Below, piece by piece: positions 3,954 through 13,800 of a stretch of 47,006 nt of DNA (its first letter is position 1; each line of letters starts with the position of its first letter). The notes beneath the pieces are model-generated. The model did not search any database. It had not been told where the DNA came from and was given only the letters and a program-made list of their open reading frames with translations. The position numbers and the translations under genes were made by a program. Source of the DNA: a virus (taxonomy: Duplodnaviria > Heunggongvirae > Uroviricota > Caudoviricetes); IMG/VR virus record IMGVR_UViG_2925903241_000004. The stretch is one strand, 5' to 3'.

Positions 3954-4145
3954 TTAAAATCCTGCCGGGATTTCGTTATTATCCTGGTGAATAACTTTAT
4001 CGACCGGATAACAGTTGCCTGGAATTTTCTGTTCGGTTGCTGCTGCCATACATTCCTGCATTGTTCTGTGAACACTGACTGCAATATCAACTGGCTCTCC
4101 GGAAACAAGAAAAACCGTCAGAATAAGTGCAAATACTGGATTCAT
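3954..4145 (-). CDS. ydfD: YdfD-like small protein (Qin prophage lysis protein homolog)
   Basis: 63-aa ORF from internal ATG at 4145 with AGGATG-type RBS; ATGA start/stop overlap with the upstream DicB gene; hydrophobic N-terminus; length and position match ydfD of the dicB operon. Confidence 0.6.
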   Translation of the reverse strand: MNPVFALILTVFLVSGEPVDIAVSVHRTMQECMAAATEQKIPGNCYPVDKVIHQDNNEIPAGF

Positions 4146-4330
4146 TGTGCACATCCTTTTGGCATCAGACGTAAACGGGCCAGCATTGAAACAATGCATA
4201 CTTTATTTAATAACTCCCGTTCGTGTTTTCTTTTGTTAATGGCATCTTCAGTAAATACAGGATTACTGATAGTGACACCAATTTCAAAACAACCTTCAGA
4301 CGTATTAACGTTTGGTAATAACGTTTTCAT
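4142..4330 (-). CDS. dicB: Cell division inhibitor DicB
   Basis: 62-aa product MKTLLPNVNTSEGCFEIGVTISNPVFTEDAINKRK... closely matches my recollection of E. coli K-12 DicB; located just downstream of the DicF sequence as in the Qin dicB operon. Confidence 0.75.
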   Translation of the reverse strand: MKTLLPNVNTSEGCFEIGVTISNPVFTEDAINKRKHERELLNKVCIVSMLARLRLMPKGCAQ

Positions 4331-4499
4331 TATCGCGCCCTCAACAATGAGTTTTGTGATGCGGTGCCTGGTGCCTCCAGGTGACGTTAACCAGTTAACA
4401 ATTAACGCCGGATACAGAGAATCCACCCATAACACTGTTTTTGGTTTTAACTGTTCCGCGTGCGCTTAGCCGCATTCACCGCATCACAAAATTCACTTT

Positions 4500-4557
4500 A
4501 AAAAGGGCGGCAGAGCAGTCACGGAGTAAAACTGATACCGCCAAACGTCACCAGAAA
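4500..4557 (-). ncRNA. dicF: DicF small regulatory RNA (ftsZ-targeting sRNA)
   Basis: Reverse complement of 4500-4557 reads TTTCTGGTGACGTTTGGCGGTATCAGTTTTACTCCGTGACTGCTCTGCCGCCCTTTTT, matching the DicF sequence as I recall it, including its 3' hairpin and U-tract. Confidence 0.75.
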
Positions 4558-4898
4558 ATTGATAACAGAGGGCGTTGCAGTGGGGTTGTCACTTAAGCGT
4601 ATGGTCAACCTGACAACCCGGTGTCCTCAACGGGGGAAGGAATAACCCCGCCATACTTACCGCCGCGCCATTTCGCGGATTGCCACAACCGGAAGCGCAC
4701 GGTCGACGAAAATTTAACGACAGGCTATCTATGAACCAGCTACCTCGCCGTGCGCTTTCGCGTTATGGCCTGACTTTTCAGGGAAATATCCTTTCAGTAA
4801 ACTGTCAGTGCCGGATGCTCACCCGTGTCCGGCGCACGCACTCCACCTCACCCGTGGAGAACTCCTTAATTACCAACCTTAGCTTCGTTGGTTATCTA

Positions 4899-5117
4899 TT
4901 AACGCGGGTATGTAATCATTCTGGCAATGCTTAATGCCGCTGCTTTTTCCAGCCTGGTGATATCCTGCTCCAGAGCGGACAGATTTTCAGCCTGCTTAGC
5001 CCTGGCTTCATTGGCCCATTTCAAATCCTGCGCTGCATTAATTTTCTGGCGCATCCACTCATAAAGTTCATCATCGGTATAGTCTGGCGCGATGATGACG
5101 GGTTCTCGTTTCTGCAT
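4899..5117 (-). CDS. YdfC-like hypothetical protein
   Basis: 72-aa ORF with strong RBS (AAGGAG 6 nt upstream of ATG at 5117); position upstream of dicF/dicB matches ydfC of the dicB operon. Confidence 0.55.
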   Translation of the reverse strand: MQKREPVIIAPDYTDDELYEWMRQKINAAQDLKWANEARAKQAENLSALEQDITRLEKAAALSIARMITYPR

Positions 5118-5209
5118 GTCGGCTCCTTGTGGTTAGCGTTGCCTGCTTTTAACCACGTCAGGCGAGGTGGTATCCTCTGAGGGGTCTGTTACTCGAGAGG
5201 AAATTGGTT

Positions 5210-5410
5210 ATGAATACAATCAAGTTTTCTTGCCCAGAATGTGGTGGCGAAGTCTTTGACACATCCTTTAAACCGCAGGGCTCTGACAGTTTCGCGGGAG
5301 CCATCTGCAAAAATTGTGGTCACCTTGTAACTGAAGATGAGTCCTCGCAGTTTGATGACGAAATCGTTGACAATATCTTCGGTGCACTCACCAGAGACTT
5401 TCTGAAGTAA
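5210..5410 (+). CDS. Small zinc-ribbon protein (CPECGG...CKNCGH)
   Basis: 66-aa ORF from ATG 5210 with two CxxC pairs about 20 residues apart; antisense to the surrounding dicB-operon direction; overlaps an open minus-strand frame (5189-5545), so strand assignment is uncertain. Confidence 0.4.
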   Translation: MNTIKFSCPECGGEVFDTSFKPQGSDSFAGAICKNCGHLVTEDESSQFDDEIVDNIFGALTRDFLK

Positions 5411-7294: not shown

Positions 7295-8365
7295 ATGGCT
7301 AACGCCTGGCTCAGATTATGGCATGACATGCCAAATGACCCTAAGTGGCGAACAATTGCCAGGGTGTCAGGGCAGCCAATTGCAACAGTGATGGCAGTGT
7401 ATATCCACCTCCTGGTGAGCGCGTCACGAAATGTCACGCGAGGTCACATTGATGTCACGACAGAAGATTTGGCAAGTGCGCTCGACGTGACAGAAGAGGT
7501 AATTGATTCAATTTTGCAGACGATGCAGGGGCGGGTACTTGATGGTGATTTAATCACTGGATGGGAAAAACGCCAGGTGCTGAAAGAGGACAACGGCAAT
7601 ATTTCGCAAACCGCAAAATCTCCGGCAGAGCGCAAGAGGGCGCAGCGAGAGAGGGAAAGAAAGCGGGAACAAAATGGCGATTGTCACGGCGAGTCACGAA
7701 ATGTCACGCACATGTCACGACGAGTCACGACAGATAAAGATACAGATAAAGATACAGATCAAGAAGATCAAAACACTATGGTCCATGGCGTAAAAAACGC
7801 CACGAACCAGGCAGGGGATGTTCAGACCGTCACTCCTGGCCAGCCCGCAGGCACGACACCGGAAGCCGATTCAGCGTATGCGCTGAAAGCCGATTCGGGC
7901 GCTGTGCAGCAGGTGATGACCGCAAGGCAGGAGCAATCACACCAACTTCAGCAGCCTGAAGCCGATTCCGCCATTCAGCGGGAAGCCGATCGGGTAGTCC
8001 CGGAAAACACCGGGCAGCCTGTGGGACGAGTGGATTATCCTGATGTGTTCGAACAGGTCTGGCGGGAATACCCGTTGCGTGCCGGGGCAAACCCGAAGAA
8101 ATCCGCTTTCAGTGCCTGGAAAGCCAGATTACGCGAGGGGGTGCCACCAGAGGCCATGCTGGATGGCGTGAGGCGTTACGCAAGATACCTTGCGGCTACC
8201 GGGAAAACGGGAACGGAATTTGTTCAGCGAGCGACGACGTTTTTTGGACCGGACCGGAATTTTGAAAACCCCTGGCTGCTCCCGGTAAGCGGCACGAACA
8301 ACCAGCGTTGTGTGAATCATATTTCTGAACCGGATAACGAAATTCCGCCGGGCTTCAGGGGGTAA
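7295..8365 (+). CDS. Phage replication initiation protein (O-like), contains internal origin iterons
   Basis: 356-aa ORF from ATG 7295 (GAGG RBS); conserved N-terminal region common to lambdoid replication initiators; iterons and an AT-rich tract lie inside the coding sequence, as ori-lambda lies inside O. Confidence 0.6.
   Translation: MANAWLRLWHDMPNDPKWRTIARVSGQPIATVMAVYIHLLVSASRNVTRGHIDVTTEDLASALDVTEEVIDSILQTMQGRVLDGDLITGWEKRQVLKEDNGNISQTAKSPAERKRAQRERERKREQNGDCHGESRNVTHMSRRVTTDKDTDKDTDQEDQNTMVHGVKNATNQAGDVQTVTPGQPAGTTPEADSAYALKADSGAVQQVMTARQEQSHQLQQPEADSAIQREADRVVPENTGQPVGRVDYPDVFEQVWREYPLRAGANPKKSAFSAWKARLREGVPPEAMLDGVRRYARYLAATGKTGTEFVQRATTFFGPDRNFENPWLLPVSGTNNQRCVNHISEPDNEIPPGFRG
7423..7463 (+). 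repeat. Origin iteron set 1 (4 x GTCACR at ~10-bp phasing)
   Basis: GTCACG at 7423 and 7433, GTCACA at 7443, GTCACG at 7454; helically phased direct repeats inside the replication gene. Confidence 0.6.
7683..7780 (+). repeat. Origin iteron set 2 (5 x GTCACG at ~10-bp phasing) plus adjacent AT-rich tandem repeat
   Basis: GTCACG at 7683, 7693, 7703, 7714, 7724, followed by tandem acagataaagat x2 and an A/T-rich stretch (7731-7780) that could act as a DNA-unwinding element. Confidence 0.6.
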
Positions 8366-9885: not shown

Positions 9886-10635
9886 TCACTGATCTCCTTC
9901 GGTCAACGGAGATTGTATTTTCCGCATTGATTCTCCTTTAAGTTCGATCTTGATACTGCCATGAACCAGTCGATCTAGGATGGCATCCGCATGTGTGGAG
10001 TCTCCGATCATTTTGTACCAGTTTTCCACCGGCAACTGGCTCACTACGATGATTGAGCCTCGTTGGTACATCAGATCCACTATTTCCAGCAGGTCGCTAC
10101 GCTGTTCTGATGAGAGAGGTTCCAGCCCCCAGTCATCCAGAAGCAGCAGATCGCTATTATTCAGCCTGGTCAAAAGTTTGCTGTATCTTCCATCAGCATG
10201 CCCCTGATAGCACTGTTCCATCAGCGCTTTAAGGCGATAATAGTAGACCTTGTATCCCTGTCGGCAGGCATTATGACCAAGTGCACATGCCAGGAACGTT
10301 TTACCGCTGCCGGTGGCCCCGGTCAGTAAAATATTTTGTTTCAGGGTTAACCAGTTTCCCTGACTGAGTGAACGGATGAGGGCCCTGTCCAGCCCTCTAT
10401 TGTTACGATAATCCAGCTTTGATAACTCAGCATTAAGTCTGAACCGTGCATGTTTGATCAGACGCTCTGCCTTCCTGTTTTCACGGCAGGTTAGTTCTTC
10501 TGCTGTCAGTAATGACAGGCGTTCTTCGAAGCCCAGCTCCTGGTATGTGCCCGGTTGAGCAAGTTGCTTTTTAAGCGCATCACGGAAGCCGGTGAGTTTA
10601 AGTGCGGTCAGTTGTTCGTAAAGATGATTCATCAT
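9886..10635 (-). CDS. istB: IS21-family helper ATPase IstB
   Basis: 249-aa ORF with Walker A (GATGSGKT) and DnaC/IstB-like layout; immediately downstream of istA. Confidence 0.9.
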   Translation of the reverse strand: MMNHLYEQLTALKLTGFRDALKKQLAQPGTYQELGFEERLSLLTAEELTCRENRKAERLIKHARFRLNAELSKLDYRNNRGLDRALIRSLSQGNWLTLKQNILLTGATGSGKTFLACALGHNACRQGYKVYYYRLKALMEQCYQGHADGRYSKLLTRLNNSDLLLLDDWGLEPLSSEQRSDLLEIVDLMYQRGSIIVVSQLPVENWYKMIGDSTHADAILDRLVHGSIKIELKGESMRKIQSPLTEGDQ

Positions 10636-10646
10636 TGGATCCCGTA

Positions 10647-12188
10647 TCAGTGGTAATACTCACTGCCGCGTACGTTTTCGTGTTCCATCGTGGATAACAG
10701 ATCTGGTTTTGGATCCTGAACAGGTTGTTTATCCAGACCTTTTTCCAGGATCGATTTAATACCTGACAGACGCCATACCTTTGTTTCCAGAGCTCTTGCA
10801 CATGCTGCATTAAGTCTGGCTTTACTGTATTTTTTATGAAGGTTCAGGAGTCCAAGGCAGAAGCGATAGCTTTGTTCCGGATGTGGACGAGAGTTCAGTA
10901 TATGAAGCACATAACTATGAGTTTCACTGCCTATGTGCCCCGCCCATTCCAGAAGACGCTCTGGCGTCCAGGTGGCATGCTGTCGATGAGCTTCAGGCAT
11001 GTGCTCGTTGCGGGTACTGTAGCCATAAGTACGCTTGCGCGGGTGCACAGCAACCTCCTGCCCCTGATTGAAGAGTCTTACCAGTTCTCCGGAGATCCAT
11101 GCTTCCAGTTGCTGGCCTAACAGCGAACATGGAACCGAGTAGTAATGTTTGTCGATTTCCACGTGGTAATCGGCATGAACTCTGACTTTCTTCACCAGGG
11201 TGTAACTGTAACTGGCTTCAGGAAGAGGCTTCAGTGCGGGTTTATCAAGCTGGATGAAGAGTTCTGCACGTGAATAACCCAACTTCTGCATTATTTTGTT
11301 ATTCAGTCTTTCCAGCAACTCCCGAATGCGCTGATTAAGCGATGCAAGGCTGTAGAAGATCTCATGCCTGATTCGGGCCATGATCCAGCGTTCAACAACC
11401 TGAACGCCAACTTCAGCTTTGGCTTTATCTTTCGGTTTACGTGGCCGCGCAGGCAAAACTGCGACATTATAATGCTCAAGCATCTGCTGGTAGGTAGGGT
11501 TAACGTCAGGATCATACTTACATGCCCTGGATGTGGCGCTTTTCAGATTGTCCGGAACAACAAGTTCAGGAACGCCACCCAACCACTGGAAGCAGCGAAC
11601 ATGACTCATCACCCAGTCTTCAAGCTGCTGAGACCAGGTGGCCTCTGCCCATGTGTAACTTGATGCCCCGAGAACAGCTACGATGACCTGAGCAGTTCTT
11701 ATTTCTCCGGTCTCAGGGTCGGTAACGCCAACGGTAGGTCCACAGTAATCAACGAAAAGTTTTTCGCCAGCTTTATGTACCTGACGCATTGATGGTGAAG
11801 TGGTTTTGAGCCATTCACGGTACATCCGGCAGTAATGGTTATAGCTGTAAAAACCGCCTGGATTACGCTCACAGTATTCTTCCCAGAGTAGCTGCAGCGT
11901 CACGCATTTATTACGCAGTTCCCGGTGTACTGTAGCCCAGTCAGGCAGAGAGTGCTTCTTCATCTTAACCTGGGTCTGAAGGAACGCATGTTTTAGTTTT
12001 GTATCATCCCATCCTGTAGGTAAGGGCCACTGCTTTATGCCAAGTTGAGCCGCCCGATTAGCATATCTGGATACAACGGAAGGGGAGATTGCAAGACTAC
12101 GACCAATTTGTCGATGGCTGAGTCCAACACCGTATTTAAGCCTAAGAATTTCTTTAAGTTTTCTCATAGAAATTGGAACTGTTGGCAT
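10647..12188 (-). CDS. istA: IS21-family transposase IstA
   Basis: 513-aa ORF with N-terminal HTH and DDE integrase-core-like region; paired with istB as in IS21-family elements. Confidence 0.9.
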   Translation of the reverse strand: MPTVPISMRKLKEILRLKYGVGLSHRQIGRSLAISPSVVSRYANRAAQLGIKQWPLPTGWDDTKLKHAFLQTQVKMKKHSLPDWATVHRELRNKCVTLQLLWEEYCERNPGGFYSYNHYCRMYREWLKTTSPSMRQVHKAGEKLFVDYCGPTVGVTDPETGEIRTAQVIVAVLGASSYTWAEATWSQQLEDWVMSHVRCFQWLGGVPELVVPDNLKSATSRACKYDPDVNPTYQQMLEHYNVAVLPARPRKPKDKAKAEVGVQVVERWIMARIRHEIFYSLASLNQRIRELLERLNNKIMQKLGYSRAELFIQLDKPALKPLPEASYSYTLVKKVRVHADYHVEIDKHYYSVPCSLLGQQLEAWISGELVRLFNQGQEVAVHPRKRTYGYSTRNEHMPEAHRQHATWTPERLLEWAGHIGSETHSYVLHILNSRPHPEQSYRFCLGLLNLHKKYSKARLNAACARALETKVWRLSGIKSILEKGLDKQPVQDPKPDLLSTMEHENVRGSEYYH

Positions 12189-12759
12189 AGGTATCCTTTA
12201 CCGGAATGGCAAAAGATACAGATCAACACACCTGTGAAGTTCCAATAACATTGATGGAGATCACTGAATAACAAAATGAGTCAAAAGTGATCTCCATCGA
12301 TGTTATTCAGCGATCTGTTCAAATGTTATTACCCGATCTCGATGGAAGTTATTGAGTGATCTCCTTTCATGAAAATACGCAGTAGTGGTCTGGTGACTGG
12401 AAATATGTACCGAAAAAAGAGGATTGTAACGACAGGCCGAACTATGAAATTCAGGCCTTATTCACTGCCCCGCCAGTCCCGGTTACATCAGAAGAACTGG
12501 TTAAAGCTGTGCACTTTTATGAACAACTAAAACGCGAAAATCCACCAGCATCCGGAAACCTGATTACAGATTCCCAGATAAGGCAATGAGCTACCTGGCG
12601 CAGAACGGGCTGATAAGTATGGGGAATGTTTTACGATGAATATTTAGACTAAAGAGTTTGTAACGCTATGTAAGTGATTTTTTCTGGTTTAGATATTTAT
12701 ATGTTCGGCCAAATTGAGGTGTGTTTAAATGTAATTGCACATTGATTGTAGGAGGAATA

Positions 12760-12939
12760 ATGAAAAACGCATTGCAGTTTTTGTTTGTTGCGTTCTGGTT
12801 GTTCGTATCATGTATGCCCATCATCTTCACAGCAAGGTATATGGAAAAAGTTGATGTTTTGATATTAATATTTGGATATATAAATGCCCTTTTTTTAGGG
12901 GTGTTCATGGCGGTCATGTGCATTGAATACTGGCGGTAA
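12760..12939 (+). CDS. Small membrane protein (two predicted TM helices) in AT-rich moron
   Basis: 59-aa ORF from ATG 12760 with AGGAGG RBS; strongly hydrophobic; local GC clearly lower than the flanking prophage DNA. Confidence 0.45.
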   Translation: MKNALQFLFVAFWLFVSCMPIIFTARYMEKVDVLILIFGYINALFLGVFMAVMCIEYWR

Positions 12940-13198
12940 ATACAGCGAACGCCATTGGTTTAGTTGGATATTTACTGTGCCGGACAAAAACGGTTTGCGG
13001 GGAAATCTTAGTTAAGTAGAATGACTGCGGGTGCTTGAGGCTATCTGTCTCAGGCATGAACACCAAAAGGCAGATAGAGAAAAGCCCCAGTTAACATTAC
13101 GCGTCCTGCAAGACGCTTAACATTAATCTGAGGCTCAATCTATGAACGGCAAATCTAGGTTAGCCTCTTACGTGCCGAAAGGCAAGGAGAAGCAGGCT

Positions 13199-13354
13199 AT
13201 GAAGCAGCAAAAGGCGATGTTAATCGCCCTGATCGTCATCTGTTTAACCGTCATTGTGACGGCACTGGTAACGAGGAAAGACCTCTGCGAGGTACGAATC
13301 CGAACCGGCCAGACGGAGGTCGCTGTCTTCACAGCTTACGAACCTGAGGAGTAA
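13199..13354 (+). CDS. hok: Hok/Gef-family type I toxin (HokD/RelF-like)
   Basis: 51-aa product MKQQKAMLIALIVICLTVIVTALVTRKDLCEVRIRTGQTEVAVFTAYEPEE matches the Hok family; AGGAGA RBS; an in-frame upstream extension (from 13142) is open. Confidence 0.85.
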   Translation: MKQQKAMLIALIVICLTVIVTALVTRKDLCEVRIRTGQTEVAVFTAYEPEE

Positions 13355-13521
13355 GAGACCTGGCGGGGGAGAAATCCCTCGCCACCTCTGATGTGTCAGG
13401 CATCCTCAACGCACCCGCACGTAACCCGCTTCGGCGGGTTTTGTTTTTTCCTGGCATTCTGGTTTACAATTCGCACGCCAGCCTGAACAACTGGCACCTG
13501 CTGCGCCAGCAGAGACAACCG

Positions 13522-13800
13522 ATGGCGCACGATACCAAATTACACAATTCTAATGATTCTGCCGTCTTTGCCAGTAGGTGCGGACGGCGTTTTCACGCAT
13601 TCAAATCAGACTGGTTCCAGCATCCTCCATGCACTGAAGAGCAGGCGGAATGGATAATTCAGTGTTACCGCAGGCGCGGATACGAGGTTAAGAAAGCTCT
13701 TAGCCTCGACTACCGTCACTGGATAATCTCAGTCAGACTCCCTTACTCCGAACGCCCACCGCGTTCATCCCGCACATACCAGCAACGGATCTGGAGGTAA
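13522..13800 (+). CDS. Hypothetical protein (Rem-like position between hok and DUF968)
   Basis: ORF open from 13393; first ATG at 13522 gives 92 aa; start codon uncertain (no clear RBS); gene order hok - small gene - DUF968 - Q mirrors Qin hokD-rem-ydfU-quuQ. Confidence 0.4.
   Translation: MAHDTKLHNSNDSAVFASRCGRRFHAFKSDWFQHPPCTEEQAEWIIQCYRRRGYEVKKALSLDYRHWIISVRLPYSERPPRSSRTYQQRIWR

Follow-up and report, generated by a model that had tools for sequence, protein, structure and literature searches.

Introduction

The mechanism by which type I toxin-antitoxin systems of the hok/sok family act, along with the tac/fbi, ucb, mok and Sok features on which it relies, has been described for R1 (PMC9841398). 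In the lambdoid prophage Sp5 of Sakai, hokW-sokW is a functional toxin-antitoxin pair (PMC8621323), and it has also been reported that hok is enriched in prophages and that HokD is toxic on overexpression (bioRxiv 10.1101/2025.08.07.668861). Here we analyze a hok locus, and a small open reading frame (ORF) upstream of it, in the IMG/VR virus record IMGVR_UViG_2925903241_000004 (Duplodnaviria; Heunggongvirae; Uroviricota; Caudoviricetes), whose whole stretch of 47,006 nucleotides is called the window below. The locus is probably best explained by two units, namely a canonical hok/mok/sok cassette and, separate from it, a real gene for a membrane protein of 59 residues, named ORF59. All coordinates refer to the window unless otherwise stated, and those of the features are collected in Table 1.

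The hok/mok/sok Cassette

Judged by its sequence, the segment 12995-13449 holds every part of a canonical hok/mok/sok type I toxin-antitoxin cassette, which is already known biology. Hok was found to match Pfam PF01848 (HOK_GEF) with an E-value of 3e-23 (81.6 bits, cut-off 22), and it is identical to K-12 HokD in all 51 residues (100% identity). Alignment of 12990-13460 to the hokC/mokC/sokC locus of K-12 revealed that the ATG of mok lines up with the annotated ATG of mokC, and the mok frame matches PHROG 251 ('MokW-like host killing') at 7.7e-33. In addition, the Rfam model RF01794 ('sok') was matched over 13029-13204 with 112.4 bits (E 4e-26, gathering score 59), all of the model positions 1-157 being covered. 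This model runs along the hok-sense strand as far as the start codon of hok; it thus scores the leader that is targeted by Sok and not Sok itself.

Nevertheless, the minus strand does encode a putative Sok in cis, which is complementary to the region of the mok start and has a putative promoter of its own. Its predicted start at 13150 falls 7 nt past the -10 hexamer and at the same position as the mapped 5' end of sokC. In the predicted fold (-31.9 kcal/mol, z -4.4), an unpaired 5' tail that covers the mok start region precedes a long hairpin, and the U-rich CUUUUCUCU follows. A lead to the small RNA PasA, which came from a preprint with Sok matches near PasA, was dropped; PasA lies between sialate esterase and holin genes. 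An earlier note on this DNA had recognized the 51-aa Hok/Gef toxin and an open in-frame extension upstream of it, which can now be identified as mok, and it was also right in finding no relBE genes, as none are present here. Its negative finding on a Sok-like antisense RNA is overturned by the match to RF01794 and by the minus-strand Sok homologue with its promoter.

The predicted fold of the full-length hok mRNA (13029-13449) has a minimum free energy of -173 kcal/mol (z -7.4) and contains the 12 bp of a tac/fbi pairing between 13029-13040 and 13404-13416. In the same fold the Shine-Dalgarno (SD) sequence of mok is paired to 13083-13088, and the AUG of mok and the SD of hok are likewise paired. 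An mRNA starting at about 13029 would accordingly be folded shut by its 5' end and the fbi-like element, with the mok SD GAGG held by the upstream anti-SD. On the model of R1 hok/sok, slow trimming from the 3' end would open this mRNA, and translation of mok would then be required for Hok synthesis. The unstable Sok RNA would pair with the mok start region and the duplex would be passed to RNase III, while loss of Sok would allow the 51-aa Hok to enter the inner membrane and to collapse the membrane potential. We infer that the copy in the window would be expressed and toxic in this manner.

Two further observations concern the hok transcript. An Rfam match to isrK at 13363-13444 on the plus strand stayed below threshold (27 bits vs a gathering score of 50, E 0.004); it spans the hok 3' untranslated region, the fbi element and the terminator, and probably reflects only a similar layout of a hairpin plus a terminator. 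Moreover, A-to-I editing by TadA has been stated for the hokC, hokD and hokE mRNAs (bioRxiv 10.1101/2025.08.07.668861), and the TAC codon of HokD Tyr47 (13337-13339, plus strand), in the context GCTTACGAA, resembles the TadA editing context (Tyr to Cys).

Comparison With Other hok Loci

The hokD gene of K-12 (relF, Qin) encodes an identical Hok and is found in the same prophage family, at the same place upstream of the DUF968, RusA and Q genes. However, in K-12 and ATCC 8739 a block of 3.3 kb inserted precisely at the hok start codon splits the coding sequence (CDS) from its promoter, the mok start and Sok, whereas the cassette of the window is uninterrupted. In ATCC 8739 and PhiR42_1 the counterpart of 12553-13200, i.e., ORF59 and the whole hok leader, is contiguous and is followed by the 3.3 kb and then by the counterpart of 13185-13448 with the hok CDS. 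The block contains an ISNCY transposase fragment, ydfW, flxA, ydfV, relB and relE, and the same 15-16 nt, AGGAGAAGCAGGCTAT, (A)GGAGAAGCAGGCTAT, stand at both of its junctions (13185-13200 in the window; 4595-4610 and 7909-7924 in the locus L003). With the block placed at the start codon, ATCC 8739 is thus left with an orphan hok leader and Sok promoter beside ORF59. MG1655 retains the relBE-hokD part only, the hok leader and ORF59 both being gone. On this comparison the window has the uninterrupted form of the hokD locus that has been rearranged behind relBE in K-12. ORF59 and the hok CDS are contiguous in 1069 of 5426 complete E. coli genomes.

The leader of hokC/mokC/sokC (gef) of K-12 is collinear with that of the window from an identical 5' end, GCGGGTGCTTGAGGCT, and mokC is an in-frame extension of hokC, just as the mok of the window is in frame with hok. 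The -10 hexamer of the putative hok promoter sits opposite TATAAT in the hokC locus. The Sok hairpin of the window is 18 nt longer than that of sokC. In the hokC locus, IS186 interrupts the sequence 20 nt past the stop codon, and the fbi and terminator region is lacking, while the window keeps both elements. With hokW-sokW (Sp5) and R1 hok/sok the cassette shares a Hok of 51-52 aa, mok, an antisense Sok that has a promoter of its own, and tac/fbi folding, and hokW-sokW is also carried by a lambdoid prophage. The reading frames of mok and hok differ in R1, in contrast to the arrangement in the window. Furthermore, hokW and R1 hok are experimentally tested loci, whereas the copy described here is predicted from its sequence.

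As for the hok cassettes of O157 and many other genomes, their match to the window begins at about 12982-13027 and they have other upstream neighbors. The hok cassette is, by this measure, a unit that recombines independently, with a left edge at about 12982-13010 and with ORF59 outside.

ORF59 and Its Paralogue

Very probably, ORF59 is a genuine gene that encodes a hairpin membrane protein. The GC content is 36% over 12600-12960, compared with 50.6% for the whole window, and ORF59 begins 4 nt behind a perfect AGGAGG at the right spacing, which is replaced by AGGGGG in some haplotypes. The protein has two hydrophobic stretches with the loop ARYMEKVD between them, and in its AlphaFold2 model a short charged loop connects helices 2-24 and 31-58 (mean predicted local distance difference test score, pLDDT, 72.8). 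The AT-rich segment, the hydrophobic 59-aa frame behind AGGAGG and a two-helix membrane protein had all been put forward in the earlier note, and they are borne out by these values, by the paralogue and by the codon-position identities described next.

A HMMER scan of 1.84 billion representative proteins revealed a second 59-aa family member with 41% identity, found on more than 1000 contigs (e.g., UniRef A0A2S5RMW9_ECOLX). The two subfamilies have the same start, stop and length, align gap-free from Met1 to Arg59 and have 17 invariant residues in common (M1, L5, L8, W13, S17, C18, P20, I22, T24, L36, G39, N42, A43, L44, E56, W58, and R59). The paralogue lies between ttcA and uspF, in the Rac attachment region, beside a truncated integrase. 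Like ORF59, it is placed downstream of the 3' end of the same gene and upstream of hok sequence. In its case this is only the 3' third of hok, 58 nt further on (80% identity to 13267-13332); a deletion has removed the hok promoter and leader, mok, Sok and the half that spans the membrane. The paralogue is also more AT-rich at third codon positions than ORF59 of the window. This Rac-site remnant occurs in 1045 of the 5426 complete genomes; in the RefSeq records listed, no feature is annotated under the match. In E. coli CP042246.1, for example, it spans 3984-5300 of the locus L090, with the intact paralogue at 5001-5180 and the hok 3' third at 5235-5300. The window-type AT-rich segment is present in 1584 of the 5426. 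No third subfamily was detected by word-indexed single-protein and profile searches, by HMMER against the 1.84 billion proteins, by tblastn against 50,697 phage genomes, or in GTDB species genomes and metagenomes, the contigs of the latter being scanned with a degenerate DNA pattern of the invariant residues. Matches of the paralogue to DUF4212 and Na_symport_sm were below threshold (E 0.03-0.07, far below the cut-offs) and were taken as compositional.

The comparison of the two subfamilies carries the signature of a coding sequence. No indel interrupts the alignment of the 180 nt of ORF59 to the paralogue, whereas gaps are required in both flanks. The three codon positions are 58, 73 and 47% identical (position 2 vs 3, p = 0.008), which amounts to a three-base periodicity of conservation. 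The divergence at nonsynonymous sites (dN) is 0.44 and that at synonymous sites (dS) about 2.3, giving a dN/dS of about 0.19, a rough value with dS between the subfamilies near saturation. Furthermore, the GC content of ORF59 by codon position is 34, 28 and 51%, so that GC at third positions (GC3) differs from the 31% of positions 1 and 2 (p = 0.013); with AT-richness confined to the first two positions, that of ORF59 is largely a matter of amino-acid composition. Finally, the 59-codon frame is intact in 112 of 116 IMG/VR copies, which had been retrieved by a flanking anchor and not by ORF59 itself.

Among ORF59 haplotypes four polymorphisms are common, at 12806, 12850, 12870, and 12877 (V16A, V31I, I37M, and Y40H); all are nonsynonymous and they occur in several combinations, and no common synonymous polymorphism was seen in ORF59. 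M37 and H40, which the Rac-type paralogue shares, may be the ancestral residues. The copy in the species representative E. coli ECMA0423 (L008, CP178302.1), matching 12577-13028 at 88% identity, has many single-base indels, three of them in ORF59, and looks like an assembly error rather than decay.

Table 1. Features of the hok/mok/sok cassette, of ORF59 and of their surroundings, in window coordinates.
Feature	Position	Strand	Remarks
ORF59, 59-aa two-helix (hairpin) membrane protein	12760..12939	+	MKNALQFLFVAFWLFVSCMPIIFTARYMEKVDVLILIFGYINALFLGVFMAVMCIEYWR
ORF59 SD AGGAGG	12750..12755	+	4 nt ahead of ATG
AT-rich intergenic region	12640..12759	+	30% GC; separates ORF59 from the stop codon of the nin-region gene upstream
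Putative hok promoter	12995..13022	+	-35 TTGCGG 12995-13000, 16-nt spacer, -10 TAGAAT 13017-13022
Predicted full-length hok (mok-hok) mRNA	13029..13449	+	from the conserved 5' end GGGUGCUUGAGG through the intrinsic terminator
tac-like 5' element	13029..13040	+	pairs with 13404-13416 in the predicted full-length fold
Anti-SD (ucb-like) AGCCCC	13083..13088	+	paired to the mok SD in the predicted closed fold
mok SD GAGG	13130..13133	+	same motif as the R1 mok SD (PMC9841398)
mok reading frame	13142..13354	+	70 codons, in frame with hok, includes the hok CDS
Putative Sok antisense RNA, about 77 nt	13150->13074	-	ends mapped from annotated K-12 sokC via alignment
Putative Sok promoter	13157..13185	-	-35 TTGCCT 13185-13180, 17-nt spacer, -10 TAACCT 13162-13157
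hok CDS, 51-aa HokD	13199..13354	+	SD AAGGAG 13184-13189; PGAP name HokD, WP_000813254.1
fbi-like 3' element	13404..13416	+	CCUCAACGCACCC; pairs with the mRNA 5' end in the predicted fold
Intrinsic terminator of hok mRNA	13423..13449	+	hairpin 13423-13440 plus T run
ISEc12, whole element	9886-12381	-	IS21 family; istB 9886-10632, istA 10647-12188; PGAP names from the identical RefSeq stretch
ISEc12, terminal region	12189..12381	-	context outside the feature; element end at about 12381
92-aa gene after hok (PHROG 1212)	13522-13800	+	directly behind the cassette

Possible Roles of ORF59 and Alternative Explanations

It may be asked whether ORF59 is tied to hok, either as a membrane modulator or immunity factor, or through read-through that alters the folding of the hok mRNA. 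Both subfamilies lie directly upstream of hok or of a hok remnant in the same orientation, and nearly all Qin-type copies retain the hok leader downstream. No terminator-like site was found between 12939 and 13029 (the fold of 12925-13030 has z -1.2), and transcripts passing ORF59 would run into the hok promoter region. However, the flanks of the two loci are homologous, and the shared order of upstream-gene 3' end, ORF59 and hok can therefore be explained by common descent. In addition, most E. coli hok cassettes have other upstream neighbors, as mentioned above, and the paralogue is intact where hok has been destroyed. Moreover, ORF59 occurs in only 3 of the 50,697 phage genomes, as against hok in thousands of phages and prophages (bioRxiv 10.1101/2025.08.07.668861). 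From these comparisons we treat ORF59 as a neighbor of hok and not as a hok component, and a tie between the two appears improbable. It is similarly unlikely, on our assessment, that ORF59 and its Rac-site paralogue form an unrecognized family that serves as a conserved partner of prophage hok, for example by tuning Hok action or in phage exclusion.

Alternatively, ORF59 could itself be a membrane toxin, either a second type I-like toxin or a lysis or holin-like factor. It is a small hydrophobic membrane peptide, as type I toxins are (59 aa with two predicted hydrophobic helices), and it is phage-borne, located beside a type I toxin and preceded by a strong SD. Most type I toxins, on the other hand, are single-helix proteins. 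No antisense or adjacent small-RNA signature was found, minus-strand promoter and terminator scans at both subfamily loci gave nothing above shuffle expectation, and Rfam gave no match of note over 12600-12960. The paralogue is intact beside a hok stump in the 1045 Rac-site remnants, with no visible antitoxin, which would be unexpected for a potent toxin. Furthermore, ORF59 is situated in the nin region and not in the lysis cassette, and its C-terminal tail has only four residues (EYWR), unlike that of holins. A toxin is thus a doubtful identification, with little probability.

Under the two-unit explanation, ORF59 would rather be a non-essential accessory inner-membrane protein, translated from its strong SD on rightward transcripts of the nin region. 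Its size, two predicted helices and carriage by a temperate phage are shared with the small phage inner-membrane proteins that are known as superinfection-exclusion or moron products. It has no detectable sequence or fold relation to them, as there is no PHROG family and as the best E-value of its AlphaFold2 model in Foldseek against viral structures was 3.3, which is meaningless for a two-helix hairpin. A search of full-text literature for ORF59 peptide sequences retrieved no paper. Since the paralogue persists in a decayed remnant without a visible antitoxin, ORF59 does not look like a strong toxin, and a modulator or an exclusion-type factor may be proposed in its place, though only tentatively.

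There are, however, several points that weigh against a working cassette beside a real ORF59 gene. As regards the cassette, the putative hok and Sok promoters both score under the threshold of the consensus scan, and chromosomal hok loci have been reported to be incapable of post-segregational killing (bioRxiv 10.1101/2025.08.07.668861), so that the activity of the copy in the window is not guaranteed. As regards ORF59, PGAP leaves 12590-13198 empty and the frame is uncalled in the five RefSeq records inspected, and it has no match in Pfam, PHROGs, NCBIfam or PADLOC. No homologue was found beyond E. coli and Shigella in 5.8 billion proteins, the 50,697 phage genomes, species-representative genomes and a metagenome scan; every relative retrieved by the word-indexed search is at least 91% identical and comes from E. 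coli or Shigella. Neither a promoter nor a terminator was found for ORF59: there is no sigma-70 consensus on the plus strand in 12300-13700, which leaves room for weak or non-sigma-70 promoters, and promoter, terminator and repeat scans around ORF59 gave nothing beyond chance and no stable structure. ISEc12, which lies upstream in this window, may also keep rightward early transcription from reaching ORF59. Finally, the polymorphisms of 28 ORF59 haplotypes are 7 nonsynonymous to 1 synonymous, and by subfamily the ratios are 10-11:1 for the Qin type and 3:0 for the Rac type. With 14 of 15 family polymorphisms nonsynonymous, p is 0.13 vs neutrality and the sites are too few; recent constraint looks weak and does not differ significantly from neutrality.

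These points have their greatest bearing on the reading in which ORF59 is not a gene but a chance open frame in T-rich and AT-rich intergenic DNA, whose T-richness would translate into a 'hydrophobic protein'. The frame is unannotated and without a family, its within-subfamily polymorphisms are nearly all nonsynonymous, and an opposite-strand ORF of 85 codons is open as well and is annotated in some phage records. Nonetheless, a frame open by chance would have to account for the indel-free paralogue of equal length amid flanks with indels, for the periodic conservation, the dN/dS and the deviating GC3, and for the SD and the largely intact frames. The antisense ORF is moreover closed in the paralogous locus. 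We consequently give little credence to a chance frame, and retain ORF59 as a gene next to the hok cassette.

The minus-strand ORF (12666-12923) was for its part rejected as a gene. In the PhiR42_1 record (PV340562.1, 10959-11210) the opposite strand over ORF59 is annotated as 'hypothetical protein', and in vB_EcoS-640R1 and 813R8 (ON470612.1 and ON470619.1) as 'hornerin'. Given that this frame is closed in the paralogue, these annotations are probably mis-annotations.

Prophage Setting and the IS21-Family Element

The stretch of the window around ORF59 and hok is 100% identical to E. coli chromosomes, and in the identical RefSeq stretch, as annotated by PGAP, it belongs to a Qin-like lambdoid prophage that is largely intact. 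From left to right, the prophage carries the exonuclease gene, ydfD, dicB, ydfC, a repressor/Cro pair, a YdaT-like gene, and replication and DUF977 genes. These are followed by small nin-region genes, ISEc12, a truncated gene, an unannotated gap and hokD, and then by the PHROG-1212 gene, DUF968, RusA, antiterminator Q, and the lysis and terminase genes. ORF59 and hok are thus located within the nin region, with the replication genes on one side and DUF968-RusA-Q on the other. In the related prophages of EE72d and K-12 a rem gene is found between hokD and the position of the PHROG 1212 gene. In this window ISEc12 splits a nin-region gene (PHROG 14306/660) that has 204 aa when intact in EE72d; its 3' fragment remains at 12386-12589, and the stop of the upstream nin-region gene in intact relatives corresponds to TGA 12637-12639.

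The end of ISEc12 at about 12381 is where homology to IS-free genomes starts. The ORF59-hok segment also occurs where ISEc12 is absent, namely in ATCC 8739, strain EE72d and phage PhiR42_1. Strain 123636 has an identical ORF59-hok stretch, with its copy of the insertion sequence about 325 bp farther upstream. These occurrences indicate that the segment is prophage backbone into which the element was inserted later, and by this comparison it is not IS21-associated cargo. The view of the earlier note, i.e., an antitoxin-less hok next to an AT-rich moron acquired as cargo after the IS21 insertion site, can draw on an IS21-family element 380 bp upstream and on the AT-rich composition, but it has hardly any probability left with Sok, mok, tac and fbi all present and with the segment found without the element or with it elsewhere. 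The term moron has the atypical composition in its favor, but no promoter- or terminator-like site was found to flank ORF59, and GC3 is normal at 51%; for ORF59 the term is weakly supported.

Conclusion

The hok/mok/sok cassette is textbook biology, and its added value consists only in presenting the uninterrupted ancestral layout of the relBE-hokD locus that is rearranged in K-12. ORF59 is a modest gain in annotation. It stands for a family of small membrane proteins that bears the signature of coding sequence and occurs in a large share of E. coli genomes, but for which no family model exists. The family is new, but its class, that of small membrane proteins from prophages, is a familiar one, and nothing points to a new principle. 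Were ORF59 and its paralogue indeed partners of prophage hok, a benefit to the host would explain why the paralogue has persisted in a decayed remnant. Small prophage membrane proteins often prove to act in exclusion, to modulate host transporters or to be toxins, and we thus believe that ORF59 is a reasonable candidate for study.

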